In this document: piece by piece, positions 9,656-32,000 of the stretch
Layout of the letters: each line of letters opens with the position of its first letter
How positions within the stretch are numbered: the first letter of the stretch is position 1
From: Synechococcus elongatus PCC 6301
Lineage (GTDB): Bacteria; Cyanobacteriota; Cyanobacteriia; Synechococcales; Synechococcaceae
DNA: 32,000 nt
Direction of reading: 5' to 3'
NCBI RefSeq assembly: GCF_000010065.1
Contig: NC_006576.1
Coordinates: forward strand, 1,830,001-1,862,000
The notes under the pieces: model-generated
Told to the model about the DNA's origin: nothing
The model's database searches: none
What the model saw: the letters and a program-made list of their open reading frames with translations, nothing else
Position numbers and translations under genes: made by a program

Positions 9656-9775
9656 CTAGGAAAGAACGTGGGCTTTGAGGAGCAGCGCACTGATCAGGCG
9701 ATAGCCACTGAAGCTGACAAAGCCTAGCAAGACAACAAAGAGAGCGACATTGAAGACATCGCGCAGGCGATCCAT
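9656..9775 (-). CDS. Candidate 39-aa single-pass membrane peptide (unassigned)
   Basis: It runs from the ATG at 9775 to the TAG at 9656-9658 and encodes MDRLRDVFNVALFVVLLGFVSFSGYRLISALLLKAHVLS. It has one hydrophobic helix and lies in an otherwise unexplained 308-bp gap on the same strand as both neighbours. There is no recognisable family, and it is below the ORF-track cutoff. Confidence 0.3.
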   Translation of the reverse strand: MDRLRDVFNVALFVVLLGFVSFSGYRLISALLLKAHVLS

Positions 9776-9871
9776 AGACAAATCCAGCTGAAATGCGCCC
9801 TCACTCTATCAAGCGATCGCGCTCTCACTCGGGTCGAGCAGCAATCCGTTATAAAGCTTGCGCTGAAGCCG

Positions 9872-10918: not shown

Positions 10919-11038
10919 GATTTGACTAGCAAAAAGACCCTTGTTCAGCCTAGCGGCTTCGGTTGTTTGGGTACGGTCGTTCGGTGCGAAATCCCCCCTC
11001 ATCTCGTTCCTAAAACCGAACCATGCTCAAGCGATCGC

Positions 11039-11078
11039 CTCCCTAGAGTGAGTGTGTCGAGAGCAGTCCGTTAGGGAG
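11039..11078 (+). promoter_or_regulatory. Possible SD-sequestering hairpin in the hspA leader (candidate RNA thermometer)
   Basis: CTCCCTA (11039-11045) is complementary to TAGGGAG (11072-11078), with an extra G-U next to it. The right arm contains the only SD-like element (GGGAG), 8 nt before the hspA ATG at 11087. Confidence 0.25.
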
Positions 11079-11086
11079 ACCTCAAA

Positions 11087-11578
11087 ATGGCACTCGTTCG
11101 ATTCAGTCCGCTCTACGAATTTGATCGTGAATTGGGCACCCTCCAACGGCAGATGAGCCGCTTCTTACAGCCGTGGCCTTGGACCGAAGCAGAACTGAAA
11201 GAGTTGAGTTTTGCACCAGCGGTTGAGGTCAAGGAAACGGATGCAGCGATCGAACTTCGGGTTGAGTTGCCAGGGATTGATCCGAAGGATCTCGACCTGC
11301 AAGTCACTGCTGAAGCCGTTGTTCTCAAAGGCGAACGCCGCAGCGAAGACCGGAGCGAAGCTGAAGGTGTGCTGCGCACTGAGTTCCGCTATGGCGCCTT
11401 TGAACGGGTGATTCCATTGCCCGCTCAGGTCAAAAACACCGAAGCACAAGCCGATTATCAAAACGGCATCTTGGTGCTGACGCTACCGAAACGCGACGAA
11501 GAGTTGCACAAAGTCGTCAAGGTCGATCTGGGCCACCTCGCCGCAGCGCCGGTTGCTGCTGAAGCTTGCGAGCGATAG
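11087..11578 (+). CDS. hspA: Small heat-shock protein (alpha-crystallin/Hsp20 family)
   Basis: 163-aa ORF. The block PAVEVKETDAAIELRVELPGIDPKDLDLQVTAEAVVLKGERR...FRYGAFERVIPLP...ADYQNGILVLTLPK is a canonical alpha-crystallin domain. Confidence 0.9.
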   Translation: MALVRFSPLYEFDRELGTLQRQMSRFLQPWPWTEAELKELSFAPAVEVKETDAAIELRVELPGIDPKDLDLQVTAEAVVLKGERRSEDRSEAEGVLRTEFRYGAFERVIPLPAQVKNTEAQADYQNGILVLTLPKRDEELHKVVKVDLGHLAAAPVAAEACER

Positions 11579-11615
11579 CGCCATCCACGTTGAGTCCTGC
11601 AATTCGTCATCTTCT

Positions 11616-11646
11616 GGGGCTTTGGGTTAAAGCCCCAGTTTTTTTG
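11616..11646 (+). terminator. Intrinsic terminator of hspA
   Basis: GGGGCTTT (11616-11623) pairs with AAAGCCCC (11629-11636) around a GGGTT loop. AGTTTTTTTG follows. Confidence 0.7.
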
Positions 11647-11674
11647 TTGGTTTCCCGTCCCGAACTGCCGTAGA

Positions 11675-12868
11675 TTGACCTTGACATCGCAGCAAGTTCA
11701 AGAGGGTGCCGTGCCACTGCTGGAAGGACTGATTGGAGTCGGAATCGCGATCGCCGCGATCGGGGTTGGCCTCGAAGTGCAGTACCAACGGCGTGAGGGC
11801 AACAAACTCGAAGTCACCAACGGTCAGTGGCAGACCGATCGCAGTCCGGGTCGCTTGCAGTTGACCGGCCGGATTGAGCTGATCAACCGCACTCGCAAGC
11901 TGGAAATTATGGTGCCGGAGCTGGTTGCCAAAGCGAAGTTACTGTCCAAGCAAAGTCTGGAAGGGATTCGTTGGCAAACGCGGGTTGTGCCGGAGCACGA
12001 AGATGCGGCAGCCCGTGCCAATGACTACTGGTTTGCCTACATCGTCAAAAAACGCACCACAATTCGTGTCGAACTAGACATTGAAGGGCCAGAAGACGCG
12101 ATCGCAGCCTTGGAATCGGCTTGGCTGCAACTGCGCTACGTCACCTATGGCCCCCAGGGGCGAATTCCGCGCCGTAAACACATCGTCTTGGCGCTGAAAG
12201 AACTGGAACTCGATACCGCGCCAACTTGGCGATCGCTCTCCCAAACTGATCGTCTGCCGATTAAAACCCATCTGCTGACGCCGCAGGACGATCCAGTTGA
12301 GGTCGTCAAACGCTACGTCTTGCCCTACAGTCAGCCCGGCGACCTGCTGGCGATCGGCGAAACACCGCTGGCGATTATGCAGGAGCGCTTCCGTCATCCC
12401 CGCGATATCAAACCCGGCTGGGTGGCGCGCCACGTCTGCTACTACTTCCAACCGACATCCAGCTTGGCGACGGCAGTGGGACTGCAAACGCTGGTCGATG
12501 CGGTCGGACCGTGGCGGGTGTTCGGGGCGTTCCTCGGTGGCGTCTTGCTGCGGTTGGTTGGCAAACGTGGCGGCTTCTACATCCTTGCCGGTGAACAAGC
12601 GCGGCTGATTGATGATGTGACTGGCAGCTTGCCGCCCTACGATCAATTTGTGGTGCTGGGACCACAAGATCCGCAAGCGGTTGTCGATCGAATTGAACGA
12701 GAAACTGGCCTGAAAACAGCGATCGTCGATGTCAATGACCTGAAAGCGGTGAAGATTTTGGCGGCGAGTGCTGGGTTACCAACCGCTGTTCTGGAATCCG
12801 CTTTGCGCGACAATCCGGCTGGCAATGCCGATGAGCAAACGCCGATTGTGTTGGTGCGGCCTCGCTAG
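11675..12868 (+). CDS. Membrane-anchored protein with a CofE-like (F420-0:gamma-glutamyl ligase family) C-terminal domain; function uncertain
   Basis: 397-aa ORF with a TTG start, which is uncertain. It has an N-terminal TM helix (LLEGLIGVGIAIAAIGVGL). The C-terminal half (GDLLAIGETPLAIMQERFRHP...FYILAGEQARLIDDVTG) resembles cyanobacterial proteins annotated as F420-ligase-like. The family call is from memory only. Confidence 0.5.
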   Translation: MTLTSQQVQEGAVPLLEGLIGVGIAIAAIGVGLEVQYQRREGNKLEVTNGQWQTDRSPGRLQLTGRIELINRTRKLEIMVPELVAKAKLLSKQSLEGIRWQTRVVPEHEDAAARANDYWFAYIVKKRTTIRVELDIEGPEDAIAALESAWLQLRYVTYGPQGRIPRRKHIVLALKELELDTAPTWRSLSQTDRLPIKTHLLTPQDDPVEVVKRYVLPYSQPGDLLAIGETPLAIMQERFRHPRDIKPGWVARHVCYYFQPTSSLATAVGLQTLVDAVGPWRVFGAFLGGVLLRLVGKRGGFYILAGEQARLIDDVTGSLPPYDQFVVLGPQDPQAVVDRIERETGLKTAIVDVNDLKAVKILAASAGLPTAVLESALRDNPAGNADEQTPIVLVRPR

Positions 12869-12925
12869 CGATCGCCCCGGATCCGCAAGCTAAGATCAAG
12901 GTCACGCCGCGCTGTCAAACCACTG

Positions 12926-14104
12926 ATGTCAACTCTGATCAACAACGCTGAATCAGTGCAAATTCGGCCGCTCCAATACCGTGATCTAACCTGGCTAGAA
13001 CCCTACTGGCAGAGCGATTGCAGTGGTGGCATCAGTTGGGATACGCTGCAGCGCTGGTTCCCGCGGCTCAAGCTTCTCAGCACCTTCCCCAATCCGGCCC
13101 GTCATCTGGCGGCGATCGCCGTTGCGGAATCGGGCCAAAAACCCTGCGGCGCGATTCAAATCAGTCCGTTTAACCACAGCCGCAGCACTTGGCGGATCGA
13201 TCGCGTCTTGGCACTCCTCCCAAGCCTCAGCGAGGGCCAGTCGCTCACTCTGGCCCAAGATGTAGGCATTCGCCTACTGCGTCACTGCCTCGAAACGGTG
13301 TGGGAAGCCCGCACTTGGGTGGGTGAGGTTGACAGCAGCGATCAATCGCTGATTGCTCTCTATCGCCAAACCGGATTTCAGCCCCTCGCTCAGCTCAACC
13401 ACTGGAGCTTGTCGCCTGCGCAGTTAGCAACCTTGGCGCAGCGTGAGCCGGATCTCCCCAATCTGTTGCCCGTCAGCAATGTCGATGCGGGGCTGCTCTA
13501 CCAGCTCGACACGGTATCGATGCCACCGCTGTTGCGGCAAACCTTCGATCGCCACGTCGATGACTTCCGGATTAGTTTGCTGCGCCGCTGGAGTATTGGC
13601 TTTTGGCAGTGGCTGAATGGCCACCATCGTTGCAGTGGCTATGTGTTTGAACCGCAGCGCAAAGCCGCGATCGCCTATTTCCATCTGCAGATTGCCGAAG
13701 ACAGCAGCCAGAATCACGTGGCTCGTTTGACGGTGCATCCGGCCTACACCTGGCTCTATCCCGAGTTGATTGCCCACATGGCCCGCCTGTTGGCCTCCTG
13801 TCCGGCTGCTGACTTGCACCTCTCCTCGGCGGACTACCAGCCGGAGCGGGAGGAATACCTCAAACAAATTGGTGCGGAACATCAAGGCCAACGCTTACTG
13901 ATGGCGCGATCGGTTTGGCACAAGCTGCGGGAAACGCGCTTCGTCTCGCTAGAAGGCCTGCAGCTAGCCGATGTCTTCAATGGCTTACAGCCAGGACGTG
14001 CTCCTGCCCCCGGTCGGATTGGCAGCACCGCTCCCGTTCCGATTCGGACTCGCAATGCAGAACCGCTGCTGAGCACGGGTTGGGATCTACCGCCCGTCCT
14101 GTAA
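12926..14104 (+). CDS. Putative tandem GNAT-like acetyltransferase-fold protein
   Basis: 392-aa ORF. IRPLQYRDLTWLEPYW opens a GNAT-like domain, and LIALYRQTGFQPL matches the GNAT Y/F-x-x-x-GF region. A second similar-length half ends in EYLKQIGAEHQG. This is a weak, pattern-level assignment. Confidence 0.45.
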   Translation: MSTLINNAESVQIRPLQYRDLTWLEPYWQSDCSGGISWDTLQRWFPRLKLLSTFPNPARHLAAIAVAESGQKPCGAIQISPFNHSRSTWRIDRVLALLPSLSEGQSLTLAQDVGIRLLRHCLETVWEARTWVGEVDSSDQSLIALYRQTGFQPLAQLNHWSLSPAQLATLAQREPDLPNLLPVSNVDAGLLYQLDTVSMPPLLRQTFDRHVDDFRISLLRRWSIGFWQWLNGHHRCSGYVFEPQRKAAIAYFHLQIAEDSSQNHVARLTVHPAYTWLYPELIAHMARLLASCPAADLHLSSADYQPEREEYLKQIGAEHQGQRLLMARSVWHKLRETRFVSLEGLQLADVFNGLQPGRAPAPGRIGSTAPVPIRTRNAEPLLSTGWDLPPVL

Positions 14105-14110
14105 AAACCG

Positions 14111-14560
14111 ATGCCTTACTACGCTGCCTTGGGCCTCGATGTGGGTCGCCGCCGCATTGGGGTGGCGGGTTGCGATCGCCTCGGGATTACTGTGCAAGGA
14201 CTGACCACGATCGTCCGGCGCGATTTTGCCAGTGATGTCGCCGCGATCAGTGCGATCGCCAAAGAACGGCAGGTGGAACTGCTGGTGATTGGTTTGCCCT
14301 ACTCGATGGATGGCAGCCTCGGTTCGCAAGCCAAGCAGACGCAACGCTTTGCCACCCGTTTGAGTAAGGCGCTGCAACTGCCGATTACGTACGTCGATGA
14401 GCGGCTGACCTCCTTTGAAGCCGAAGAGATGATCAAGGCTGTAGGGCGATCGCCCTCTCGTGATAAAGGCGCGATCGATCGCAAGGCAGCTGCGCTGATT
14501 CTGCAACAATGGTTGGACGAGCAGCGGGAGCCCCGCCGCTTCGGTTCCACTCAACACTGA
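14111..14560 (+). CDS. ruvX: Holliday-junction-resolvase-like / pre-16S rRNA nuclease YqgF
   Basis: 149-aa ORF. ALGLDVGRRRIGVAGCD...LLVIGLPYSMDGSLGSQA...YVDERLTS...DRKAAALILQQWL is the conserved YqgF/RuvX pattern. Confidence 0.9.
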   Translation: MPYYAALGLDVGRRRIGVAGCDRLGITVQGLTTIVRRDFASDVAAISAIAKERQVELLVIGLPYSMDGSLGSQAKQTQRFATRLSKALQLPITYVDERLTSFEAEEMIKAVGRSPSRDKGAIDRKAAALILQQWLDEQREPRRFGSTQH

Positions 14561-14565
14561 GTCCC

Positions 14566-15093
14566 ATGGAAGACGTCCCCACGCTCTTAGTTCAGGATGA
14601 CGCTGGCCGAACGCTGCTCTGCGATCTAGAGCATCTCGTGCCGATCGATGGGCAAGAGTACGCCTTGCTCATGCCAGTTGACACGCCGGTTTCCCTGTTC
14701 GCTTGGGATGGCGAAGATGAGGACGAGCCACCTCGTTTGGTAGAAGACGAATCAGAAGTTGAGGCGGTTTGGCCAACGGCCAGCGCTGTTTTGCAAGAGC
14801 AGAACCTGACGCTGATTAACTCTGCAGTCACCCTCACCGTCGAAGGTGAACTTCCCGATCTCGAAGATGAAGACGAAGAGTCAGACTTCGAAGAAGACGA
14901 GGAAGTGGAAGAAGAATTCATCCATTTAGTCAGCTTCTACCACGAGGAGCAGGAGTATTCCTTCTTCGTGCCCCTTGAGCCGATCTACGTCGTGGCACGG
15001 CTAGTTGATGGCGAAGCGAAGCTGCTGACGCCGGAAGAGTTTGAGGCGATCGAGGAACGCCTAACCGCCGAACTCGATGAGCGGATGGCTTAA
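14566..15093 (+). CDS. Acidic DUF3727/DUF1292-like protein
   Basis: Start trimmed to the ATG at 14566, 6 nt after the ruvX stop, giving 175 aa. It contains a strongly acidic run (EDEDEESDFEEDEEVEEE). A DUF1292-type gene directly downstream of ruvX is a known conserved arrangement. Confidence 0.7.
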   Translation: MEDVPTLLVQDDAGRTLLCDLEHLVPIDGQEYALLMPVDTPVSLFAWDGEDEDEPPRLVEDESEVEAVWPTASAVLQEQNLTLINSAVTLTVEGELPDLEDEDEESDFEEDEEVEEEFIHLVSFYHEEQEYSFFVPLEPIYVVARLVDGEAKLLTPEEFEAIEERLTAELDERMA

Positions 15094-17973: not shown

Positions 17974-19354
17974 GCAGATCGGGCCCCTGCATCGAACCCA
18001 TCAGGGCTGCCCGCAGCGATCGCATACCGATGCCTTTTTTGACACCGGCGGCTTTGACCGCTTGATCGATCAGCCCTTTCGCAACTTCGAGGGTCAGGGC
18101 TTCGCTGGGGAGTGCCTCAAGGATTTGCTGGAGCACTGCTTTACTGCCTGCTTGACCCAGTTGGGCGATCGCATCTTCTTGCAGTTCGATCCCCTGACTG
18201 AAGAAGAGCTGGCTTTGGCCGACGATATCCGTCAAGGTCACGAGGCTGGGACCCAAGAGAGTCGCCAATTCTTCCAGCCAAGCCGCAGGATAGGCTGCTG
18301 TATCGACCCCGGCCTTGCTCCAGAACGGTTGCAGCAGTGCCACCAACTCACTCGCGGATTTCTCCTTGATCACCTGACTGTTGAGCCAGTTGAGTTTGTC
18401 CCAGTCGAATTTGGCACCGGCTTTGTTGACGCGATCGAAGTCAAAGACGGTCGCTGCCTCCGCCAGACTAAAGCGCTCATCCATGCCTTCCACGGGCGAC
18501 CAGCCCAACAGGGTCATGTAGTTGGCGATCGCCTCGGGCAGATAGCCCAAGTTTTGGAAGTCGGAGATGGAGGTGACGCCATCACGCTTCGAGAGTTTGC
18601 GGCCTTCCTTGTTGAGGATCAGTGGCGTGTGCGCAAACTCGGGCACCGCAGCACCCAGCGCTTCGTAGAGCAGGATTTGCTTGGCGGTGTTAGCGATGTG
18701 GTCTTCGCCGCGAATGACGTGGCTGATCGTCATGTCGATGTCATCGACCACGACCGCGAGGTTGTAGAGCGGCTGACCGATCGTGCCAGCGGGACTGCGG
18801 CGGGCAATCACCATGTCGCCCCCGAGGTCACTGCCTTTCCAGACGACGCGATCGCGCACTAAGTCTGTCCAAGCGATTTCGCGATCGTCATCAATGCGGA
18901 AGCGAATCACCGCCTCGCGGCCTTCGGCTTGAAATGCGGCTTCTTGCTCCGGCGTCAGGTCGCGGTGGCGGTTGTCGTAGCGCGGGGCTTCATTGCGGGC
19001 GCGTTGCGACTCGCGCAGGGCTTCCAGTTCGGCTTCGGTGCAGTAGCAGCGATAGGCTTTGCCACTGTCGAGCAATTGCTGCACGGCGGCTTTGTAGAGG
19101 TCGAGCCGCTGGGTTTGGTAGAACGGGCCTTCGTCCCAGTTCAAGCCCAGCCACTGGAGGCCGGTCAGGATGTTGTCGGTGTATTCCGATCGCGATCGCT
19201 CGAGGTCTGTATCTTCGATGCGCAGGATGAACTGGCCCTGATGCCGCCGCGCAAACAACCAGTTGAAGACGGCAGTGCGGGCCGTGCCAATGTGGAGGTT
19301 GCCGGTGGGGCTAGGAGCAATGCGAACGCGAACTGACACAGTGATTTCCAACAA
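17894..19354 (-). CDS. gltX: Glutamyl-tRNA synthetase
   Basis: 486-aa ORF (TTG at 19354; alternative GTG at 19339). It has the HIGH motif [15 protein letters not shown], the KMSKS-type motif KLSKRDG, and [11 protein letters not shown]. Confidence 0.95.
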
Positions 19355-19434
19355 CGGGCTTCAGTTCTCGATCGTACGGTGTTGCGGCAGCTGCTTGTAA
19401 AGTCATCAACAAAAGGACTACCACTAGTAGCCAT

Positions 19435-21180
19435 GCTTTTAAAAATAGCTAAATCGCAACTATTTTATGATACTTTTTCCTCTTCAGGATTGACAGATAT
19501 ATACAATAGTCTCGAAGCAATTTAATTGTGATTGTCTAATTCCTTTTCAATAGCATCAATCAAATAATCAAAATTGTTATTGACATGTTTAAGATACTCT
19601 TCAATCGCTGAAGTCTGAATTACACTCTCATCTGAAGCAATTTCAGAAGCAATACACTTAGCATAGTAATGATGATCAGAAACGTTCTTATATTGAAAAA
19701 ACCATTCAACATCTAAATCATACTTTGACTTAAAAAAGGCCTTAACCGCAGAATGCTCAAAAACCTCTTTTTCCGGAGGCTTATTACCTGGAAAGGAATA
19801 TAAGCCTTCTTTCTCTGAAGGCCCAATATCTGCATCTCTAACAGCAATTGCTTTCTTTCCTGTTTTTTTAAGAATACGTACAGCTTCGCGAACTGCATCT
19901 GTGCTTCCAATAGCATGAATTTCTACTATTTTGAGCAGAGCTTTTCGTTTCATGCGTATAACTTCTATCAATAAAACCTTTGCAAAATTATCTTCGACAC
20001 ATATATCCAGTGATCGCACGTGACCAGAAGACAAGATAGATCGTAATTGACCTGAGGAAATCTTGTTTCTAATATCAACGCCACCCTCATCTCTGATCAT
20101 CAATTTTCTCGACTCAGGAGGTAGAGCATTAACAATCACACTAGAATGAGTTGAAAGTATTATTTGATGATGTCGCCTATTACATACGTCCAGAAGATAC
20201 TTTGCAAATTCATGCTGAGCGCTTTCATGAAGTGAGGTTTCTGGCTCTTCAAGGATAAAAAGACTTTGCTCTGGCGAACTCTCAAGCTTATCTATAGTAT
20301 ATAGAATACGTCCTTCGCCCAAACCCATATTATTTTCTGAGTAAGAATATCCAAGTCTGTAAGCTATACCTACTTCTGACTCTTTACCGTTGTGGGATAC
20401 TCCTTGGAATGCTACATTTTCATATTTATGACCTATGATTCTGGCCATTTTTTTTACAACTTCTGCTTCAATATCTCGTTTTTCAGTAAATTGAAGATTG
20501 ACGCCTGCATAAACACTTAAATCTCTACGTTCTACTTTTGGCAAATAAACGGTAAATCCGATATAGTAACAATACCTTTCAGGCTGTCTTTTATAGCCCG
20601 ACCAAGATGATTTTACTCGGGATACTGTAACTTCCTTAGGCTTTTGGTAATCGTCAGTCTCGTAGAAATAAACTACTTTTGCACTGTCAGATATTGGTTT
20701 TGGATCAGCTGGAGAAACTGGAAAAAAATCCTTAATATAAAGCCTTTTGTAGGTCATAGATTTATCTGGCTTCTTATATGCACAAATTGCTAGTTGACCA
20801 ACAGTACTCTTCCCCGATCCATTAAGCCCAGAAATAGCAGTTATGGGGAATTCAAGTTCAAGATCAGCCGACTGAACTCCTCGAAAGCCCTCAATATGTA
20901 CCTTTCTAAGGCAAGGCCCAAAGTTCTTGTGGCGATTTTTGGAATTGTATTTATTCCTTAATTCTTTAGTTTTGTCACTCATCTTGAAAGCTTGACTAAG
21001 TTAGTGGTTTTTTCAACAATTTTTACAGCTTAAATAATCTTGCTATCAGGTTATGCCTTAGTCTGCTTGGCAGCCTCATATTTGTAGCCAGTTATAGAAA
21101 AGACAGTTTTCAAATTTTAGCATTCTAGACTCTTTTTTGTGAAGCTCCTCTTAAGAAGAAAGTTGGTATATCAATTTCTT
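19435..21180. other. AT-rich, HIP1-free patch B: single-gene insertion
   Basis: GC falls to roughly the upper 30s% by eye. There is no GCGATCGC between about 19197 and 21343. The right edge abuts the SDR stop codon (21179-21181). The left edge lies about 80 nt upstream of gltX. Confidence 0.65.
19522..20982 (-). CDS. ABC/SMC-type ATPase fused to a Toprim-like C-terminal module (OLD-family-like nuclease candidate)
   Basis: 486-aa ORF. It has Walker A GLNGSGKST (aa 52-60), a signature-like MGLGEGR (aa 219-225), Walker B plus catalytic Glu LFILEEPE (aa 241-248) and an H-loop ILSTHS (aa 275-280). The C-terminus then has DICVEDNFAKVLL (Glu330) and IAVRDADIG (Asp383/Asp385), which resemble the Toprim E...DxD signature. 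Confidence 0.75.
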   Translation of the reverse strand: MSDKTKELRNKYNSKNRHKNFGPCLRKVHIEGFRGVQSADLELEFPITAISGLNGSGKSTVGQLAICAYKKPDKSMTYKRLYIKDFFPVSPADPKPISDSAKVVYFYETDDYQKPKEVTVSRVKSSWSGYKRQPERYCYYIGFTVYLPKVERRDLSVYAGVNLQFTEKRDIEAEVVKKMARIIGHKYENVAFQGVSHNGKESEVGIAYRLGYSYSENNMGLGEGRILYTIDKLESSPEQSLFILEEPETSLHESAQHEFAKYLLDVCNRRHHQIILSTHSSVIVNALPPESRKLMIRDEGGVDIRNKISSGQLRSILSSGHVRSLDICVEDNFAKVLLIEVIRMKRKALLKIVEIHAIGSTDAVREAVRILKKTGKKAIAVRDADIGPSEKEGLYSFPGNKPPEKEVFEHSAVKAFFKSKYDLDVEWFFQYKNVSDHHYYAKCIASEIASDESVIQTSAIEEYLKHVNNNFDYLIDAIEKELDNHN

Positions 21181-21836
21181 AGATACGGGTTGCTCGCGCT
21201 AAAGAAAGAACACAGTCAAGAATCGCTAGAAGATCACTCAGGGGAATCGCCTCACCACCTGTCAGATTAGCTGCTGCGAGATCCGCTAACACTTCTGGGG
21301 TACCCACATTTCCCGGATTAATCACCGTGACCCCAATCTGCTGCGATCGCAATTCTTCCCGTAAGGCGTGAACAACTCCCCGCAGCCCAAACTTCGACGC
21401 ACTGTTAGCAACCTCTCTTGCAGGAAAATTATCTCGACCCGAGAGAGCGCCCATAAAAACGATTTTGGGATTATGCGATCGCCGCAGTGCAGGCAGTAAG
21501 ACTTTCACCAAGCGAATCGGCGCAACAAGATTGACCGCAATTACCCGCGCAATATCCTCATCCGAACAGCTTTCAAAGTCATATTGCGGTGTAAAAGCAT
21601 GGGTTTCCCAAGTTCCGCCCATGTACAGCAGTGCATCGAGGCAATCCTCCCCGATCGCTCGAGCTACCGTTTCAACTCCGGCCAACTCCGATAAATCCGC
21701 TTGAATCCATTCCCCCAACTGGAGCCGCTGTCCGCGACACCGCCACAAGGCGATCGCACTGGTTAATAAAATGTTCTGCAACAGCAAGACCAATGCCACG
21801 ACTGGCTCCGGCCACGAGAACTGTCTTAAAAGACAT
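21179..21836 (-). pseudogene. Short-chain dehydrogenase/reductase gene with a +1-nt frameshift at a C5 run (21712-21716)
   Basis: The ATG at 21836 opens MSFKTVLVAGASRGIGLAVAEHFINQCDRLVAVSRTAAPVG, a canonical SDR TGxxxGIG Rossmann start. That frame stops after about 57 codons. The rest of the SDR (GEWIQADLSE...VAPIRLVKVLLPAL...INPGNVGTPE) continues in the frame of the 21179..21898 ORF. The span is 658 nt. Removing one G from the GGGGG run restores a 218-aa ORF. Confidence 0.75.
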
Positions 21837-26426: not shown

Positions 26427-26695
26427 GGCCGACGAGATATTGAGACAAGCCAGCTGATTGGCTTCATCAGTGGATTGAGAACTGTTGGCAAAAGTAAAAA
26501 TTTAAGTGTTCAAAATCGTCTGAAATTGCTCGGTAGCGGCTGCAAGGCTTGATCAGCGTAAATCGAACAAATTTTTTATGGCAGTGAAAATTTGCAAAAA
26601 GAATTGGAGTTCCAAAATTCCTCAGTTACTTTCTGCTTAAGGCAGGTCGGCAGAACTTTCCTGTAAACCCGCTTGACTGAACTCACTTACTGACG

Positions 26696-27865
26696 ATGCA
26701 AAAAAAGTCTAAGTTTTTTCTGGGTTTGTTAGGCGTCATCACCTGTTTTGTCCTGATAGGTAGTTTCTGTTTGCCCTCATTGGCACAAACACAAACTTGG
26801 CGATCGCTTTCCAATGTTGTCTGGGGAAAAGACCTCCCTGCCTTTAGCTACCCATTCAGCAAGACGCCACTTGTGGACTACGACGGTGGCGTGACTAAAC
26901 AAGTGGGAACCTATAACTTTCCTGTTAGCAAAGGAATGGCTGGGGTCTACATGACTCTGAAGCCTGGAGCGATCCGAGAATTACATTGGCATGCCAATGC
27001 TGCAGAGTGGGCCTACGTCATTGAAGGACGAACACGAGTCACACTGACAAATCCAGACGGACAAGTTCAGATCGCCGATGTTGATCAAGGGGGGCTCTGG
27101 TATTTTCCCCGCGGCTGGGGTCATAGTATCGAGGGAATAGGCCCTGGTACTGCCAAGTTTCTGTTGGTTTTTAACGACGGCACTTTCTCAGAAGGAGCGA
27201 CTTTCAGCATCACAGACTGGCTCTCCCACACACCGATTTCTTGGGTTCAGCAAAACTTTGGCTGGAGTCAAGATGAAGTTGAAAAACTTCCCAAAAAACA
27301 AGTTTATATCTCTCGCTATAACCCAGAGGTTAAGCCACTGGATAAAACACAATCTAGAAACCCTAAAGTTTCTAGGATCGTTCTCCCTTATACCCATAAT
27401 CTTTTGGCTGAAAAGCCACGCACAAGTCAGGCTGGTAATACACTCAAGCTGGCAAGTGCTAAAGAGTTTCCTGCGAGCTTCAACATGGCAGGAGCTCTAT
27501 TGCGATTAGAGCCCGGTGCAATGCGCCAATTGCACTGGCATCCGAATGCCGATGAATGGCAATACGTCCTCAATGGATCGATGGATCTAGCCGTTTTTGC
27601 CTCTGAAGGAAAAGCGAGTATGAGCCGTCTACAGAAGGGTGATGTCGGCTACGTTCCTAAAGGCTATGGGCACGCGCTGCGCAATAGCTCTGATCAACCG
27701 CTAGATGTTCTCATTGTCTTTAATGATGGCGACTATCAAAGTATTGATCTCAACGACTGGATTATGAGTAATCCCAATACTGTGCTGGATGATGTCTTTC
27801 AGCTTTCTCCGCAGTTGTTAGATAAGCTGCCTAAAGAAAGTGAGATTCTGATTCCTCGTAGCTAA
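26696..27865 (+). CDS. Exported Mn-bicupin of the oxalate decarboxylase family (OxdC/MncA-like)
   Basis: 389-aa ORF with an N-terminal signal peptide (MQKKSKFFLGLLGVITCFVLIGSFCLPSLA). It has two cupin metal motifs, LHWHANAAEWAYVIEG and LHWHPNADEWQYVLNG. It is collinear, as far as I recall, with B. subtilis OxdC, including FLLVFNDGTFSEGATFSITDW against the OxdC lid region FLLVFDDGSFSENSTFQLTDW. Confidence 0.9.
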   Translation: MQKKSKFFLGLLGVITCFVLIGSFCLPSLAQTQTWRSLSNVVWGKDLPAFSYPFSKTPLVDYDGGVTKQVGTYNFPVSKGMAGVYMTLKPGAIRELHWHANAAEWAYVIEGRTRVTLTNPDGQVQIADVDQGGLWYFPRGWGHSIEGIGPGTAKFLLVFNDGTFSEGATFSITDWLSHTPISWVQQNFGWSQDEVEKLPKKQVYISRYNPEVKPLDKTQSRNPKVSRIVLPYTHNLLAEKPRTSQAGNTLKLASAKEFPASFNMAGALLRLEPGAMRQLHWHPNADEWQYVLNGSMDLAVFASEGKASMSRLQKGDVGYVPKGYGHALRNSSDQPLDVLIVFNDGDYQSIDLNDWIMSNPNTVLDDVFQLSPQLLDKLPKESEILIPRS

Positions 27866-27908
27866 GTGATTGAGCAGGTTGAATGAAGCATTGAACCCAA
27901 AGATCAAA

Positions 27909-29924
27909 ATGTCAAAACAAAAATGGGCCGTTCGTCTAGCTGTTATTGCTCTGGTTTTGGCCTTTTGGCAGGTTTTATCGCTATCATCCCCTGCTCGATC
28001 CCGTGAACTAAAAACGCTCAGCCTTGCTCCAGTTTGTTCAGTCAAACTGCAAGATCCTAAAGTCACGTGGCAACTGCCAGAAGACGTCGAAGGAGGCTTG
28101 TTACAGAAAAACTTTAATGTTGTTCAGCGAGCTGTGGATCTCTTTGCTTGGCAAGAGTTTATTGCTCTAAATTGGCCTGCAAAGGTAGGCGATCGCGGTC
28201 AACCGGATATTGCAGCAATCCTTGCGAAGGCTGGCCCTCGCGTTTGGGAGACTTGGAAAGAAGCCAGCGAAGTCTACCTGCCCAATAGCGCACTCCCTCA
28301 AGCCTGGAATCGCGGGCCAGCTCTGCCTGATGAAGTGGCCCCATCTGGAGCAACAAAGGTTCTCTTTAGGACTAGTAAGGTTGACGAGGTGTTGAGTGAT
28401 CAATTCCAACCAACTAAAGCTGATGGTGCTTTGCCTGGAACTTTAACGGATCAAAGAGGAAATCTTGTTCGCTACGAGATTCGTATGAACAAGACTCTAT
28501 TTGATTATGTTGTTGACAACAAACTCTATCAGGCAGAACAGCAGGCGAACTTCCCTAATCTCTCTGCTCCGGTAGGATCGATTCTTCTCAAAGCAGCTTG
28601 GCGAGAAGTCTTGCCGAAAGAGCGCGATCGCTTCTATACAGTGCCAGCCTACGTGAAAGATATCGAGGGTGATCGCTACCAAGAAAAGCTCATGGGTTTG
28701 GTAGGCTTTCATCTCATGACGAAGACGGCCAGTGCTCCCCAGTGGATTTGGAGTACCTATGAACAGATCGATAACGTGGAGGGTTTGCATCCTTCCTTCT
28801 TTAACCCTGATTGCCCCAACTGCCTCAAAAATCAGCAAACGCAGCCACAAGTACCCAATCAAATTACTCGTGAAACTCCTATCCCTGCGGTTGACCCTGA
28901 CTGCAGTCAAAAATCAGTCGCGATCGATAACATTGCTGCCCTGAACCGAGCCATGCAAAAGGGTCTAGGTGATTCAGTTTGGCGGCACTATCAGTTGATT
29001 AATACGCAATGGCCTGTCCCTTCACCGCAACCCTCTAGCCCTCCAACCGTCTTTAAGGTATTGCCGCCTATTTTGGCAAACACAACGATGGAGAGCTATA
29101 TCCAGAAAAGTTCCTCTTGCATGGGTTGCCATGCGATCGCTCGAACGACTAATACGCAGCAATATCGATCTGCAGATTTTAGTTTTACCTTTGCTGAAGC
29201 ACGGCCAGTCCTCAAAAACCCTCAAATTATTGCTCCTCCTAAGTCTCCCAACACAAAATGGGATCGGGAGAACTGGAATAGCATTTTGCGAGGCTATCTA
29301 ATTGCGAATAAAACCTATGAAACACTGCCCCAGTATGTTCCTCAGGCGAAACTTCACTGTGCTAGCTGCCATCTCAATGTTGGGGCAAATCCTACGGCCT
29401 CCTCTTGGTTTGGGATGATCAAAAAGTATCAATATCCAGAAACAGATGATTTGCAGAAGAGAATTAATTCCTGCTTTGAGCATAGCCTCAACGGCTTGCC
29501 GCTACCGTTGGAGAAATATAATCCAGAAGCTCAAGCTCTGATTACATATATGCAGTGGCTAGATCAGCAAGCTGCTCAGTCTAAAATTACGCTGCCTAAA
29601 ACAGCTTATCCAGATATTCAGAAGCTCGCTGGAAATCCAAAGCAGGGTCAAGAAATTTTTCAGCAGAAGTGTGCGTTTTGTCATGAGTTGAATGGTGCAG
29701 GCCGCTATGGAAGTAACACCTACTATCGACCTGCGCTGTGGGGTGATCAATCCTTTAATCGCTTGGCTGGGTTAGCACAGCCGGAGACTTTGGCAAAATT
29801 CCTGAAGTCGAATATGCCCTATCAGTTTGGGGGAAACTTGACAGATCAGGAAGCCTGGGATTTAGCCACTTTTATCGATCGTCAGCCTCGCCCACAAGGC
29901 CCCTACAAAGCGCCGAAGACTTAA
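27909..29924 (+). CDS. Membrane-anchored/exported tri-haem cytochrome c: unknown N-terminal domain + TsdA-like di-haem C-terminal module
   Basis: ATG at 27909 (an upstream TTG at 27870 is possible), giving 671 aa, 43 nt after the bicupin stop. It has an N-terminal hydrophobic anchor (WAVRLAVIALVLAFWQVL). There are three CxxCH motifs: CMGCH (29118-29132), CASCH (29358-29372) and CAFCH (29670-29684). The last ~250 aa match the thiosulfate dehydrogenase TsdA pattern (CASCHL..G...RINSCFEHSLNG; CAFCH..NGAG...PALWGDQSFN..AG...NMPY...LTDQEAWDLATFI). Confidence 0.85.
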   Translation: MSKQKWAVRLAVIALVLAFWQVLSLSSPARSRELKTLSLAPVCSVKLQDPKVTWQLPEDVEGGLLQKNFNVVQRAVDLFAWQEFIALNWPAKVGDRGQPDIAAILAKAGPRVWETWKEASEVYLPNSALPQAWNRGPALPDEVAPSGATKVLFRTSKVDEVLSDQFQPTKADGALPGTLTDQRGNLVRYEIRMNKTLFDYVVDNKLYQAEQQANFPNLSAPVGSILLKAAWREVLPKERDRFYTVPAYVKDIEGDRYQEKLMGLVGFHLMTKTASAPQWIWSTYEQIDNVEGLHPSFFNPDCPNCLKNQQTQPQVPNQITRETPIPAVDPDCSQKSVAIDNIAALNRAMQKGLGDSVWRHYQLINTQWPVPSPQPSSPPTVFKVLPPILANTTMESYIQKSSSCMGCHAIARTTNTQQYRSADFSFTFAEARPVLKNPQIIAPPKSPNTKWDRENWNSILRGYLIANKTYETLPQYVPQAKLHCASCHLNVGANPTASSWFGMIKKYQYPETDDLQKRINSCFEHSLNGLPLPLEKYNPEAQALITYMQWLDQQAAQSKITLPKTAYPDIQKLAGNPKQGQEIFQQKCAFCHELNGAGRYGSNTYYRPALWGDQSFNRLAGLAQPETLAKFLKSNMPYQFGGNLTDQEAWDLATFIDRQPRPQGPYKAPKT

Positions 29925-29925
29925 A

Positions 29926-31029
29926 TCAATTCATGACTTGAGTGCGGCGATAGCGATAGTATGCAGCGCAAGCTCCCTCGCTGGAAACCATTGGCGCACC
30001 TAGAGGTTTTTCTGGAGTACAAGTGCGACCAAAAGCCGGACAGTCACAGGGTTGTTTCTGGCCTTGAAGAACCAAACCGCTGATGCAGTCATTGACTGAT
30101 GTGAGCGCGATCGCGCCAGTGATTGCAAAACGACAATGGGCATCAAACGACTTAAATTCAGGCTGGAATTCCAGCCCTCCCTCGGGAATTGTGCCCAGGC
30201 TGCGCCAGTCTTGATCGGCGATCGCAAACACCCGTTCTACCCACTGCTGAGCGGCTAAATTTCCAGCTTCTTGAACAGCGCGACCGTAGCAATTCACGAC
30301 TTCAGAGCGGCCGGATTCTAGTTGATCCAGACAGGCGTAAATGCCCTGCAAAATATCGACTGGTTCAAAGCCAGTAATCGCGATCGGGACATGATAGCGA
30401 TTAGCGATCGCCGGATATTCCGCTAAACCAGCGACTGTACAAACATGACCCGCCGCCAGAAAGCCTTGAATCCGGCAATCTGGATCAGCGAGTAACTGTG
30501 TCATCGCCGGAGCCACGCGGACATGAGACAGCAACACCGAAAAGTTGGTGAGCTGTTGTTGCTGGGCTTGGGCGATCGCGAGAGCAGTTGCGGGAGCTGT
30601 TGTTTCAAAGCCGACCGCGAGAAAAACCACTTGGCGATCGGGGTTTTTAGCTGCGATCGCAACAGCATCCAGTGGACTATAGACAATCTGCACCTGAGCA
30701 CCAGCGGCACGGGCTTGCTGTAAACTCTGCTGGCGTTCGCCGGGAACCCGTACCATATCGCCGAAGCTACAGATTATGACTTGCGGATCTTGGGCGATCG
30801 CGATTGCCTGATCAATCACCGAGCCGGGCGTCACACAGACCGGACAACCGGGGCCATGCAGCAGCGTCACCCCCTCGGGCAGCAAAGTATCGAGGCCATA
30901 GCGAACGATGCTGTGGGTCTGGCCGCCGCAAACTTCCATCAGCGTCCAAGGTCGCGTTACCCGTTGCGCGATCGCTTCTACCCACGCTTGCACGGCTGCC
31001 GCCTGCCGAAACTCCTGGACGTAGCGCAC
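29926..31029 (-). CDS. hypD: [NiFe]-hydrogenase maturation protein HypD
   Basis: Start set to the GTG at 31029 (V/M-RYVQEFRQ), giving 367 aa. The upstream ATG at 31104 would add a Cys/Arg-rich, off-composition extension. Motifs present are EVCGGQTH, GPGCPVCVTP, GFETTAP and PxHVxxP-like SHVRVAPAM. Confidence 0.9.
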   Translation of the reverse strand: MRYVQEFRQAAAVQAWVEAIAQRVTRPWTLMEVCGGQTHSIVRYGLDTLLPEGVTLLHGPGCPVCVTPGSVIDQAIAIAQDPQVIICSFGDMVRVPGERQQSLQQARAAGAQVQIVYSPLDAVAIAAKNPDRQVVFLAVGFETTAPATALAIAQAQQQQLTNFSVLLSHVRVAPAMTQLLADPDCRIQGFLAAGHVCTVAGLAEYPAIANRYHVPIAITGFEPVDILQGIYACLDQLESGRSEVVNCYGRAVQEAGNLAAQQWVERVFAIADQDWRSLGTIPEGGLEFQPEFKSFDAHCRFAITGAIALTSVNDCISGLVLQGQKQPCDCPAFGRTCTPEKPLGAPMVSSEGACAAYYRYRRTQVMN

Positions 31030-31030
31030 C

Positions 31031-32000
31031 TCAACCCCCCGGGAAGACTTCCGGCACCGCCCAAGTGCCACTCTGCAGCGATCGCAGATACTGCACCCGT
31101 TCAAAGCGATCGGGCGCCGGACAGGACTGCTGACTCATGCAACCTTGCAGCAGCGACAACGCGGGGCAATCATGCTCCGCCAGCCACGTTTTTAAGTCTG
31201 CTTCAATCCGCTGCAAGACGTCGGGGCCATGGCGTAACAGTGCCCCCACAATTTGCGTGGTGGCTGCTCCCGCCATCACCATGCGGATCACATCATCAGC
31301 GCGTTGAATGCCACCCGTCGCCGCAAAATCCACCGGCACCTGTCCGTAGAGCAGCGCAATCCAATGCAGCGGCAGCCGTTGATCCTGTGGGTTACTCAAG
31401 ATCAGGCGCGGCACGACGTCCAAACTCTCAATGTCGATATCCGGCTGATAAAAGCGGTTAAACAGCACGATCGCCTGAGCCCCCGCTTGGGCAAACTGCC
31501 GGATCATGTGGCCGGGACTGCTGAAAAAAGGGCTGAGCTTAACCGCCAGCGGTAACTGCGTCGCCGCCCGCACTTGCTCAACCACCCGCAGATATTGGGC
31601 TTCGACTTCCGCTCCGCTCTGATTCGGATCGACCGGCAGCGCGTACAAGTTCAGCTCCAGTGCATCCGCGCCAGCACCTTCAATTCGGCGGGCGTAATCA
31701 ACCCAGCCGTTATCACTGGTGCCATTCAAACTGGCGATGATCGGGATTTGAACTTGAGCTTTAGCCTTCTCAATCTGCCGGAGATAATGCACCGGCCCGA
31801 TCGGGAACCAAGCGGGCTCCGGCGCATAGGTCAGGGATTCTGCATAGTGATGACTGCCGACTTCCAACTGCTGCCAAACGGCCTGATGCTCGGCTTCTAC
31901 CTGCTCCTCAAATAGGGAATGGAGCACGATCGCACTCGCTCCCGCTGCTTCTAAGGCGGGGAGTTGTTCCGTCCGCTCACTCAGGGGAGCAGCAGCCCCA
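31031..32000 (-). CDS. Dihydroorotate-dehydrogenase-like (class 1 DHOD/DHPD TIM-barrel family) protein, 5' end outside window
   Basis: The reading frame stays open upstream of the listed GVG/GTG at 31927 to the window edge (GAAAPLSERTEQLPALEAAGASAIVLHSLFEEQ...). IIASLNG, ADALELNLY, LPLAVKLSPF, VLFNRFYQPDIDI and AATGGI are DHOD-family barrel motifs. The stop is TGA at 31031-31033. Confidence 0.75.
   Translation of the reverse strand, partial: GAAAPLSERTEQLPALEAAGASAIVLHSLFEEQVEAEHQAVWQQLEVGSHHYAESLTYAPEPAWFPIGPVHYLRQIEKAKAQVQIPIIASLNGTSDNGWVDYARRIEGAGADALELNLYALPVDPNQSGAEVEAQYLRVVEQVRAATQLPLAVKLSPFFSSPGHMIRQFAQAGAQAIVLFNRFYQPDIDIESLDVVPRLILSNPQDQRLPLHWIALLYGQVPVDFAATGGIQRADDVIRMVMAGAATTQIVGALLRHGPDVLQRIEADLKTWLAEHDCPALSLLQGCMSQQSCPAPDRFERVQYLRSLQSGTWAVPEVFPGG

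Follow-up and report, generated by a model that had tools for sequence, protein, structure and literature searches.

MncA (Sll1358) of Synechocystis 6803 is described as an MnII-dependent oxalate decarboxylase and as a Tat substrate (PMC11742986), and in a Synechocystis lexA mutant both sll1358 and the adjacent sll1359 were decreased. For TsdA, the roles of the active-site residues compared below (Arg119, Cys123, Ser127 and Gly221) have been set out (PMC4423706). A 2025 review of the P460/c'-beta superfamily mentions no fusions and no cyanobacteria. Relatives of all three occur together in Synechococcus elongatus PCC 7942/6301, in two neighbouring genes of the window analysed here, the whole 32,000-nucleotide stretch of DNA (Table 1).

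Table 1. Features of the bicupin-cytochrome patch of S. elongatus (positions are those of the window)
Feature	Position	Strand	Remarks
Leader upstream of mncA	26427..26695	+	269 nt, AT-rich, GC 0.42; direct sequence reading
mncA, exported Mn bicupin	26696..27865	+	389 aa; orthologue of Synechocystis Sll1358
MncA signal peptide	26696..26785	+	MQKKSKFFLGLLGVITCFVLIGSFCLPSLA, then Q; without twin-arginine; 2vqa mature end aligns from residue 31
Intergenic spacer mncA/cytochrome	27866..27908	+	43 nt; direct sequence reading
Tri-haem c-type cytochrome	27909..29924	+	671 aa from ATG; ABB58417.1 / syc1718_d; Sll1359 homologue
Cytochrome Sec-type signal peptide	27909..28001	+	MSKQKWAVRLAVIALVLAFWQVLSLSSPA, then RS; translation; predicted N-terminal helix residues 2-23
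N-terminal mono-haem domain	28026..29243	+	~residues 40-445; enlarged P460/c'-beta-like; without Pfam family
Lys228, invariant	28590..28592	+	aligns with haem cross-linking Lys78 of M. capsulatus P460 (McP460)
Haem motif 1, C404-M-G-C-H408	29118..29132	+	CMGCH, identical in McP460
TsdA-type di-haem module	29277..29897	+	residues 457-663; phmmer vs A. vinosum TsdA E=1e-27
Haem motif 2, C484-A-S-C-H488	29358..29372	+	equivalent of TsdA catalytic haem 1
R518-I-N-S-C522-F-E-H-S526	29460..29486	+	TsdA Arg119, Cys123, Ser127 (precursor numbering); family-invariant
Haem motif 3, C588-A-F-C-H592	29670..29684	+	equivalent of TsdA electron-transfer haem 2
K633-S-N635-M636, haem-2 distal motif	29805..29816	+	pattern of C. 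jejuni TsdA K252-x-N254-M255
hypD, convergent	29926..31104	-	PF01924 E=4e-147; backbone-like composition; patch boundary

The original prediction described an AT-rich, HIP1-poor and foreign-looking patch of about 3.5 kb with four HIP1 sites and a tight layout, and each of these points was borne out. The patch (26430-29925) has a GC content of 0.47 against 0.56-0.58 in the backbone; the values are 0.472 for the two-gene pair (GC3 0.44-0.45) and 0.557 for the remaining window, and the sliding profile runs at 0.46-0.49 across the pair and at 0.56-0.60 outside it. HIP1 (GCGATCGC) occurs 99 times in the 32 kb window, the expectation being 1.25, and only four of these sites (26800, 28189, 28624 and 29133) lie within the patch, giving 1.14/kb compared with 3.30/kb elsewhere in the window. 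This contrast between patch and backbone is far beyond chance. The layout could be read from the sequence: both genes are on the same strand, and a single nucleotide lies between the TAA of the cytochrome gene (29922-29924) and the stop codon of hypD (29926-29928, which reads tca on the + strand). Neither flanking direct repeats nor an adjacent tRNA nor mobility genes were found around the patch. A PCC 11801-type strain (L080) displays an equal GC contrast (0.47 vs 0.58), and between the PCC 7942 and PCC 11801 types the identity is 85.5% for MncA, 80.6% for the cytochrome and 86-93% for the flanking proteins. The low GC content and HIP1 depletion indicate that the patch was acquired by the S. 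elongatus lineage before those of PCC 7942 and PCC 11801 diverged.

On sequence grounds, the first gene is an orthologue of the one for MncA/Sll1358 and would specify a Mn-dependent periplasmic oxalate decarboxylase. Its product, which is identical to S. elongatus proteins ABB58418.1, BAD79907.1 and AJD57119.1, matches PDB entry 2vqa across residues 31-384 (E=2e-191) and B. subtilis OxdC (E=2e-85), contains two Cupin_1 domains, and scores 339 bits against TIGR03404 (cut-off 254), in keeping with the bicupin family to which it had been assigned. The Mn-ligand motifs are H97-W-H99, E104 and H143 together with H280-W-H282, E287 and H326, and the lid reads S165-E166-G-A-T. The N-termini of both gene products are signal-peptide-like, as the claim of export required, and the mature end of 2vqa starts at MncA residue 31, immediately past SLA-Q. 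The signal peptide itself varies: the Synechocystis type carries RRRFL, many other orthologues start with MRR, and all S. elongatus sequences have KKSK or KKSR. Since KKSK stands in place of RRRFL, the Tat dependence of S. elongatus MncA is doubtful.

The second gene, for which alternative TTG starts exist at 27870 and 27891, specifies a cytochrome with three CxxCH motifs (residues 404, 484 and 588) and an AF2 model of pLDDT 89.8. Its 1016 homologues (~50% identity) are distributed over the Acidobacteriota, Verrucomicrobiota, Planctomycetota, Myxococcota, Bacteroidota and Proteobacteria; across 79 loci no conserved neighbour of the gene was found, and its context gave no substrate hint in any phylum. 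The protein had been called TsdA-like, a description which holds for the C-terminal di-haem third (E=1e-27; Foldseek against 4v2k, E=5e-14, target TM 0.78) but not for the N-terminal ~400 residues, which are P460/c'-beta-like. Residues R518, C522, S526 and G621 are invariant in 73 homologues and align with Arg119, Cys123, Ser127 and Gly221 of TsdA. In a profile search of the PDB with the N-terminal domain, the sole matches were the cytochrome P460 entries 9hrk and 6hiu (E=1e-3), the best five Foldseek matches are all c'-beta or P460 proteins, and three distant members independently gave sub-threshold matches to PF16694 (17 bits, cut-off 27). The superfamily of this domain comprises 2728 clusters. 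Lys228 may be cross-linked to the haem. Since it possesses a complete TsdA site of its own and a P460-like open-haem domain, the cytochrome appears to be an independent enzyme and not a plain acceptor. The tri-haem acceptor role first suggested for it sits poorly with a protein two thirds of which is a P460/c'-beta-like mono-haem domain and whose TsdA module keeps the catalytic Cys, Arg and Ser.

The two same-strand genes probably share one transcript; a simple scan found no terminator-like site in the spacer. The leader gave no Rfam match at E<=1, folded no better than shuffled sequences (z 0.69) and, in a simple scan of its + strand, contained no consensus sigma-70-like site.

The coupling of a bicupin to such a cytochrome had been thought undescribed; the bicupin being an MncA orthologue, the pair already exists as sll1358-sll1359 in Synechocystis 6803. 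Conserved linkage, on the absence of which the original prediction was to fall, was found in four or more lineages of cyanobacteria whose flanking genes are unrelated: S. elongatus (the window and L080), Synechocystis-type loci (L001, L165 and L167), L164, and Vulcanococcus-type picocyanobacteria (L004 and L003). These lineages fall in four of the five cyanobacterial subclades of the cytochrome tree, with cytochromes 56-64% identical between lineages and short spacers (~13-143 nt) throughout. None of ~70 non-cyanobacterial cytochrome loci has a bicupin beside the cytochrome, none of 80 metagenomic bicupin loci has the cytochrome beside the bicupin, and among ~85 bicupin loci the pair was present only in two Synechocystis-like ones. 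The cytochrome lacks a mncA partner in PCC 6312-type genomes, L002 and L163. In L007 a 35-codon mncA relic lies directly 5' of the cytochrome gene; in the picocyanobacterium L003 mncA is frameshifted, and in L005 and L060 it is cleanly missing between the same flanks, the cytochrome gene being intact in all of these loci. The linkage is thus facultative and limited to cyanobacteria, and MncA is dispensable beside the cytochrome, decaying or lost in related picocyanobacteria. Several of the pair loci may share one ancestral operon or have moved as a unit, and would therefore amount to few independent observations.

We give about even chances to the view that the patch is a probably co-transcribed unit of two autonomous periplasmic metalloenzymes, and not a dedicated redox couple. 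MncA would work alone as a Mn(II)-dependent oxalate decarboxylase, and the cytochrome would be a self-contained oxidoreductase whose own haem, open or Cys-ligated, turns over a small anion, either inorganic or one-carbon. Thiosulfate/tetrathionate are candidate substrates for the TsdA site; at the P460-like site the candidates are hydroxylamine, NO and perhaps formate. In the TsdA module the invariant Arg-Cys-Ser would lie at the His/Cys haem and K-x-N-M around the His/Met haem, from which electrons would leave to a soluble periplasmic carrier. The original prediction had the bicupin oxidise oxalate (as an oxalate oxidase would) or another small substrate and pass the electrons straight to the tri-haem cytochrome. 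Such a hand-off to haem c is not supported. Oxalate decarboxylation is redox-neutral overall, and its net reaction frees no electrons. The published activity of MncA is that of a decarboxylase and not of an oxidase (PMC11742986), and the decarboxylase-typical lid Glu (S165-E166) is kept. Tight spacing on one strand, export of both products, persistence of the pair in four cyanobacterial lineages with different flanks and the joint shift of sll1358 and sll1359 in the lexA mutant all favour the direct couple, but the complete catalytic site and open-haem domain of the cytochrome, the missing linkage in the non-cyanobacterial cytochrome and metagenomic bicupin loci, and the decay or loss of mncA next to an intact cytochrome gene make it improbable.

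Formate might instead join the two proteins: MncA would produce formate and CO2 from periplasmic or photorespiratory oxalate, and the open haem of the cytochrome would oxidise this formate (or, in a variant, a radical or peroxide by-product derived from Mn), completing the 'decarboxylation branch' and passing electrons back to plastocyanin or cytochrome c6. In the literature, Sll1358 serves as the oxalate decarboxylase of the glycolate decarboxylation pathway of cyanobacteria, and that pathway requires a formate-oxidising step (PMC8359801). The operon is conserved within cyanobacteria, and in proteobacterial-type loci MncA homologues adjoin an FMN-dependent hydroxyacid oxidase, which ties the bicupin to glycolate/glyoxylate chemistry. 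Eisenhut et al. are also said to have labelled Sll1359, in 2008, the formate dehydrogenase of the decarboxylation branch. Against this, no formate dehydrogenase with haem c only is known; the cytochrome resembles none of these enzymes, whatever their cofactors, is common in heterotrophs with no bicupin nearby, and conserves the residues of a thiosulfate-binding site, so that coupling through formate appears very unlikely. A history without shared function is a tentative possibility. The cytochrome would then be a periplasmic enzyme acting on sulfur compounds (thiosulfate/tetrathionate) or nitrogen oxides, whose gene came to lie 3' of mncA in a segment of an ancestral cyanobacterium; the pair would have moved or stayed together since the cytochrome gene is expressed from the mncA promoter. 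Such a history agrees with the overwhelming separation of the two families, the lone cytochromes, the repeated loss of mncA without loss of the cytochrome, and a low-GC patch consistent with transfer as a block; a neutral pairing is, however, unlikely to outlast reshuffling in four lineages whose cytochromes have diverged so far, with the short spacers kept throughout. Two autonomous but co-expressed enzymes remain our preferred reading: retention of the cytochrome directly 3' of mncA despite reshuffled surroundings argues that selection has kept the two co-expressed for a single periplasmic process, of housekeeping or of detoxification, with a possible functional link between them, but does not argue for an obligatory MncA-to-haem electron-transfer complex. 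A pair kept across reshuffled flanks is nevertheless the classical signature of true coupling, whether functional or physical, and this reading could understate the cyanobacterial partnership.

Compared with Synechocystis 6803, both bicupins have two HxH...E...H Mn sites and are exported, and each is followed directly by a homologous cytochrome gene; the pair there has the RRRFL signal and host-like GC, unlike the KKSK signal and low-GC patch of S. elongatus. B. subtilis OxdC (1j58) shares the TIGR03404 family and the lid glutamate, its lid being SENST where S. elongatus MncA has SEGAT, but is cytosolic and without a cytochrome neighbour, whereas MncA is periplasmic.

The novel part is the architecture of the cytochrome, a P460/c'-beta-like domain joined to a TsdA module. 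Its 207 C-terminal residues can be aligned with TsdA (A. vinosum, 4wq7; C. jejuni) over their full length; both CxxCH motifs are present, and the protein keeps the Cys ligand, the active-site Arg, Ser and Gly, the strictly conserved Met and the K-x-N-M of CjTsdA. It differs in that the module is only the C-terminal third of the protein, in lacking equivalents of Arg109 and Arg224 (a deletion and Gln624, respectively), and in the absence of sulfur-metabolism genes near its loci. TsdBA of Marichromatium purpuratum (5lo9) likewise has a haem-carrying part fused N-terminally to a TsdA module in one polypeptide, but there the electron acceptor, TsdB, is a class I cytochrome c with two haems, whereas here the position is taken by a 400-aa beta-rich mono-haem domain. 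The only structural and profile matches of that domain are to the P460/c'-beta superfamily (McP460 6hiu, NeP460 2je2 and TtCP-beta 7ead), with which it shares a CxxCH near its C-terminal end, the CMGCH of McP460 and an invariant Lys at the position of Lys78; those proteins have ~150 aa, in contrast to its ~400 aa with large insertions and fusion to TsdA.

The patch holds two genes in tight tandem whose products are both predicted to be exported, their N-termini resembling signal peptides, and judged by sequence the first gene (mncA) encodes a known protein, the orthologue of the Mn oxalate decarboxylase MncA of Synechocystis (Sll1358). The bicupin is identical to ABB58418.1, BAD79907.1 and AJD57119.1 (S. 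elongatus PCC 7942 / PCC 6301 / UTEX 2973 type), and it matches the Sll1358 structure (2vqa) with an E-value of 2e-191 and B. subtilis OxdC with one of 2e-85. Its TIGR03404 score, 339.4 bits, is over the curated cut-off of 254.2. The two cupin domains contain the Mn-ligand sets H97/H99/E104/H143 and H280/H282/E287/H326, and the lid of the N-terminal domain (S165-E166-G-A-T) has the lid Glu. The original prediction of an exported Mn-bicupin was therefore right as to family, but the protein is not new. By accession order the bicupin is probably Synpcc7942_2388 and the cytochrome Synpcc7942_2387, tags of which the literature search found no mention. The 90%-identity cluster of the cytochrome includes ABB58417.1 and syc1718_d. 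Two partial proteins labelled Klebsiella pneumoniae (MCP5990053.1, MCP5990068.1), from contigs of 380–414 nt, fall in the S. elongatus cytochrome and MncA clusters and are most likely S. elongatus contamination of a K. pneumoniae assembly.

MncA is a textbook model of protein metal selection; to our knowledge its physiological role and operon partner have never been studied before. The Synechocystis protein is described as an oxalate decarboxylase of the periplasm that depends on Mn(II) and is exported by Tat (PMC11742986; PMC7020235), Mn(II) and decarboxylase activity both being reported for it (PMC11742986); the cyanobacterial route of glycolate decarboxylation has been drawn with it as the oxalate decarboxylase (PMC8359801). 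Its Tat signal permits trapping of Mn in the cytoplasm, and cytoplasmic folding followed by Tat export is the published reason why it takes Mn over Cu or Zn (PMC11742986). Synechocystis-type orthologues carry RRRFL and many others begin MRR, whereas the S. elongatus signal peptides have KKSK or KKSR and no twin-arginine (MQKKSKFFL in the window, MLKKSRL in L080, the PCC 11801 type). Set against the Tat-based model of Mn acquisition, this suggests that S. elongatus MncA may be exported or metalated in another way than its Synechocystis counterpart, and it provides a natural test of the view that the folding compartment decides the metal.

The window scan found 99 HIP1 octamers in 32 kb against 1.25 expected, which is of cyanobacterial character. 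The low GC and HIP1 poverty attributed to the patch were borne out: GC is 0.472 against 0.557 across the remaining window (0.56–0.58 in the backbone elsewhere), and the four HIP1 sites amount to 1.14/kb against 3.30/kb outside. The leader, the short intergenic gap, the single-base distance to the convergent hypD stop and the two export signals were likewise present as described (see the table). A simple scan detected no terminator-like site in the spacer between mncA and the cytochrome gene, and no terminator-like structure for the cytochrome gene or hypD where they converge. A riboswitch or structured leader upstream of mncA was rejected, there being no Rfam match and a fold z-score of 0.69. 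Rejected also was a mobile-element reading, since the patch has neither flanking direct repeats nor an adjacent tRNA; no integrase or transposase was found there either. Elsewhere in the window lie a second low-GC patch, with an SPFH/Band 7 protein ORF, and the strongest low-GC island, which contains an AbiEii-like ATPase gene and looks like an acquisition of the defence or toxin-antitoxin type.

Coordinates of the features discussed, in the window and in the compared loci
Feature	Locus	Position	Strand	Remarks
SPFH/Band 7 protein ORF	window	1767-2588	+	in low-GC patch 1500-3000, GC 0.45
Low-GC island	window	19000-21500		GC 0.36-0.41; no HIP1 between 19199 and 21343
AAA_15 / AAA_21 (AbiEii-like) ATPase, 486 aa	window	19522-20982	-	in the low-GC island
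Leader upstream of mncA	window			269 nt; GC 0.42
mncA ORF	window	26696-27865	+	389 aa
MncA signal peptide	window	26696-26785	+	
Cytochrome ORF	window	27909-29924	+	671 aa; spacer of 43 nt after mncA
Cytochrome and hypD stops	window	29922-29928		convergent; single base between them
MncA signal peptide	L080 (PCC 11801 type)	6815-6910		
MncA signal peptide	L001 (Synechocystis salina)	6779-6870		
mncA 3'-end relic	L007 (Cyanobium sp. N.Huapi 1H5)	7800-7904		35 codons
FdhF/YdeP-family gene	L005 (labelled Mesorhizobium)	4726-7065		
FdhF/YdeP-family gene	L060	10017-12344		
Bicupin locus	L170	4001-6394		62-64% identical to MncA (all three loci)
Bicupin locus	L171	219-2612		
Bicupin locus	L172	4001-6089		
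N-domain homologue locus	L067 (Sorangium cellulosum So ce56)	6461-14888		
N-domain homologue locus	L068 (Caldilineaceae MAG)	2265-10703		

The patch occupies the same site in the PCC 7942 and PCC 11801 lineages, and in both the pair lies about 11 GC points under its flanks. The Synechocystis pair is host-like in GC (0.474 vs 0.479) and that of picocyanobacteria is merely 2–5 points under its host. Between the two S. elongatus types protein identity is 85.5% for MncA, 80.6% for the cytochrome and 86–93% for the flanking proteins; these values and the shared low GC indicate that the patch is older than the lineage split, with no amelioration in the time after it. Short of proof, these comparisons are best read as an old acquisition. 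In the cytochrome tree S. elongatus falls weakly nearer Synechocystis than picocyanobacteria, with a bootstrap support of only 24%; picocyanobacteria are the closer relatives of S. elongatus.

The pairing was examined from both sides. In a scan on the cytochrome side (one genome per species, 79 loci, many phyla) a bicupin stood directly upstream only in Synechocystis salina, Vulcanococcus and Synechococcus UW140, and all-against-all clustering of the neighbours in these loci revealed no other neighbour common to more than 4–5 of them. Targeted look-ups added L080, with a gene order identical to that of the window (hydantoinase, DnaJ, bicupin, cytochrome, hypD, DHO dehydrogenase, PFOR), the Synechocystis-like contig L165 and contig L164; they also yielded cytochromes without a bicupin in PCC 6312, L163 and L166, as did the genome scan in L002. 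On the bicupin side, the cytochrome occurred within 5 kb in none of 80 metagenomic loci (bicupins 37–65% identical), and among closer MncA orthologues only at the Synechocystis-like loci L167 and L168. Beside two further closer orthologues, of proteobacterial type, lie instead a glutathione S-transferase (GST) gene and, in convergent orientation, that of an FMN-dependent hydroxyacid oxidase; one has neither these nor the cytochrome, and the contig of another ends before the neighbour region. In the proteobacterial-type loci L170 (the only one with a taxonomic label), L171 and L172, the gene after the bicupin is convergent and encodes an FMN-dependent alpha-hydroxyacid oxidase (PF01070), with the GST gene next in L170 and L171; this context appears to fit glycolate/glyoxylate-to-oxalate metabolism better than a cytochrome partner.

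Of the five subclades of the cyanobacterial cytochrome tree, four contain loci bearing the pair, interspersed with cytochrome-only loci; two model organisms, PCC 7942 and PCC 6803, are among the bearers. The flanks are unrelated between lineages. Synechocystis has glycogen phosphorylase, S. elongatus DnaJ and hypD, and picocyanobacteria an MFS pump and a Coq4-like gene, while in L164 the upstream flank is a gene with a HEPN domain and the downstream flank encodes an EF-hand protein. When a pair is kept despite reshuffled flanks, this usually points to selection for the operon or to transfer of both genes together. The linkage is real and conserved in a subset of cyanobacteria, but with no instance at the metagenomic bicupin loci it is not a general bicupin–cytochrome module. 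In Synechocystis both sll1358 and sll1359 are expressed less in a lexA mutant (0.38/0.55 and 0.49/0.76 relative to wild type; PMC4759255), weak evidence and the sole expression evidence that turned up. The idea that S. elongatus and picocyanobacteria share synteny at hypD was rejected, as the cytochrome is followed in L003, L004, L005 and L060 by a convergent gene (cluster 4) that is not HypD; it is weakly Coq4-like. The window's flank proteins had no match in L001–L079. A second partner was also rejected, the 422-aa upstream ORFs of L163 and L166 and the 481-aa ORF of PCC 6312 being mutually unrelated.

In picocyanobacteria mncA can be followed through stages of decay beside an intact cytochrome gene. 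It is intact in Vulcanococcus (L004), split by a frameshift in Synechococcus UW140 (L003), and cleanly missing in L005 and L060, where the MFS and Coq4-like flanks are unchanged. In Cyanobium (L007) a 3'-end relic ('FNYGRCRSMDPDGWITINPDSVLGITFQLPP' vs 'FNDGDYQSIDLNDWIMSNPNTVLDDVFQLSP'; 43% identical to MncA residues 338–372) lies directly upstream of the cytochrome gene and shares one open frame with its start region. These losses argue that the cytochrome is independent of MncA, and in most bacteria it is autonomous. Two genes downstream of the cytochrome, L005 (its Mesorhizobium label is judged wrong) and L060, both lacking mncA, carry an FdhF/YdeP-family molybdopterin oxidoreductase (formate dehydrogenase-like; TIGR01701, 786 bits), which could be chance or could hint weakly at a formate link. 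A nitrate-assimilation context, which might have suited P460 chemistry, was rejected, since the MFS protein proved to be an efflux pump of Bcr/CflA type and the molybdoenzyme a member of the FdhF/YdeP family, not NarB.

By alignment, the cytochrome combines a predicted P460/c'-beta-like haem domain, in which a lysine occupies the cross-link position, with a TsdA-type site possessing all invariant catalytic residues. This fusion, in a large family outside Pfam coverage, is the most novel element of the locus; the TsdA likeness originally noted holds for the C-terminal di-haem part and not for the rest. No Pfam family covers the N-terminal ~400 residues (the N-domain). PF16694 matches under threshold, at 17.4 bits in the window protein (gathering 27) and 16.8 and 19.7 in two distant homologues; the weak matches in the window, Nitrospira and Cellvibrionaceae proteins (E-values of 0.006, 0.009 and 0.001) concern the equivalent region. 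An N-domain profile that took in distant stand-alone relatives, searched against the whole PDB, matched solely the cytochrome P460 entries 9hrk and 6hiu (E-value=1e-3), in two collinear segments ('PtGsievKaaWk' vs 'PDGAILVKLSWKK' and CMGCH vs CMGCH). For an AF2 model of the N-domain alone (pLDDT 81.6) the top five Foldseek PDB hits, with E-values of 0.017–0.19 and target TM of 0.26–0.35, were T. thermophilus c'-beta, N. europaea c'-beta (one entry, through two of its chains) and N. europaea P460 (two entries). Each of these three lines is weak, but all suggest that the N-domain belongs to the cytochrome P460/c'-beta superfamily and nothing else is indicated.

A lysine at the haem cross-link position sets P460 apart from c'-beta. 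K228, invariant across the superfamily alignment, is aligned to McP460 Lys78 and is a candidate for the same covalent link; in 6HIU numbering Lys78 forms the cross-link to the haem, with Cys140 and Cys143 as the cysteines (PMC12352625). A 2025 review of the superfamily describes minimal sequence conservation within P460/c'-beta and is silent on fusion proteins and cyanobacteria, and the literature search found no relevant paper linking P460 and TsdA. Clustered at 50% identity, the N-domain superfamily comprises 2728 clusters that reach E<=1e-3, 375 of them with E<=1e-30; stand-alone proteins of 430–500 aa are the majority among the matches listed, and the TsdA-fused form of ~700 aa is one branch. 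Distant stand-alone homologues (L067, L068, L070 and L075) occur in a conserved trio consisting, in this order, of an uncharacterised ~370–430-aa protein, the mono-haem protein and a giant Ser/Thr kinase-AAA-GAF-histidine kinase sensor of ~1820 aa, which hints that some members may act as periplasmic ligand sensors.

Residues 457–663, with two of the three CxxCH motifs of the protein, form two class-I cytochrome c domains similar to A. vinosum TsdA in sequence (E-value=1e-27) and fold (Foldseek E-value=5e-14; target TM 0.78–0.81). In TsdA precursor numbering, with roles taken from PMC4423706 and invariance judged over 73 homologues, the counterparts of Cys123 (mature Cys96, sixth ligand of the catalytic haem; ligation by alignment), Arg119 and Ser127 (active site) and Gly221 are C522, R518, S526 and G621, all invariant. 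Arg109 falls in a deletion and Arg224 is replaced by Q624; both are substrate-pocket residues, less conserved and variable among TsdAs (PMC4423706). The strictly conserved haem-2 Met ligand corresponds to M636, also invariant, within K633-S-N635-M636. With these residues kept, the module looks catalytically complete. No sulfur-related genes were found around the 79 cytochrome loci. One paper (PMC3514855) annotates the Synechocystis gene sll1359 as a 'predicted cytochrome c' and lists for it a strain-specific N-to-K substitution in a conserved residue. Its placement among individually encoded pilin genes (PMC4144903) looks like an error, given that annotation and the tri-haem homologues found here.

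The cytochrome would act as a self-contained periplasmic oxidoreductase, electrons leaving through its His/Met haem to a soluble carrier, and its co-expression with MncA in cyanobacteria would arise because both serve the same periplasmic housekeeping or detoxification setting. Of the original interpretation the pairing stands, within some cyanobacteria, but its central proposal, direct electron transfer from MncA to the cytochrome, is unlikely, because decarboxylation releases no net electrons, the cytochrome has substrate sites of its own and the two are only facultative partners. Formate could possibly link the two in one pathway: Eisenhut et al. reportedly assigned Sll1359 in 2008 as the formate dehydrogenase of the decarboxylation branch. 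We know of no haem-only formate dehydrogenase. The most far-reaching reading, to which we give little credence, would make the 671-aa protein the founder of an unrecognised enzyme class (a lysine-cross-linked catalytic P460-type haem in a 400-aa domain, a TsdA-type Cys-ligated catalytic haem and an exit haem) forming with MncA a haem-only periplasmic chain that oxidises formate or radical products of oxalate decarboxylation and passes electrons to photosynthetic carriers.

This cytochrome family is conserved and widespread in soil and freshwater bacteria, and it joins two haem chemistries hitherto studied apart, the P460 type (hydroxylamine and NO, nitrogen cycle) and the TsdA type (thiosulfate and tetrathionate, sulfur cycle). 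If the lysine cross-link and catalytic activity are true, the P460 superfamily would reach far past nitrifiers and methanotrophs, and PCC 7942 and PCC 6803 would be genetically tractable study models. Compared with known P460/c'-beta members, which are small single-domain proteins of ~150–190 aa, the N-domain is much larger. The C-terminal module keeps the Cys, Arg119, Ser127 and Gly221 equivalents of A. vinosum TsdA without those of Arg109 and Arg224, and shares with C. jejuni TsdA the K-x-N-M pattern, there K252-x-N254-M255 with the Met as ligand (PMC5146829).
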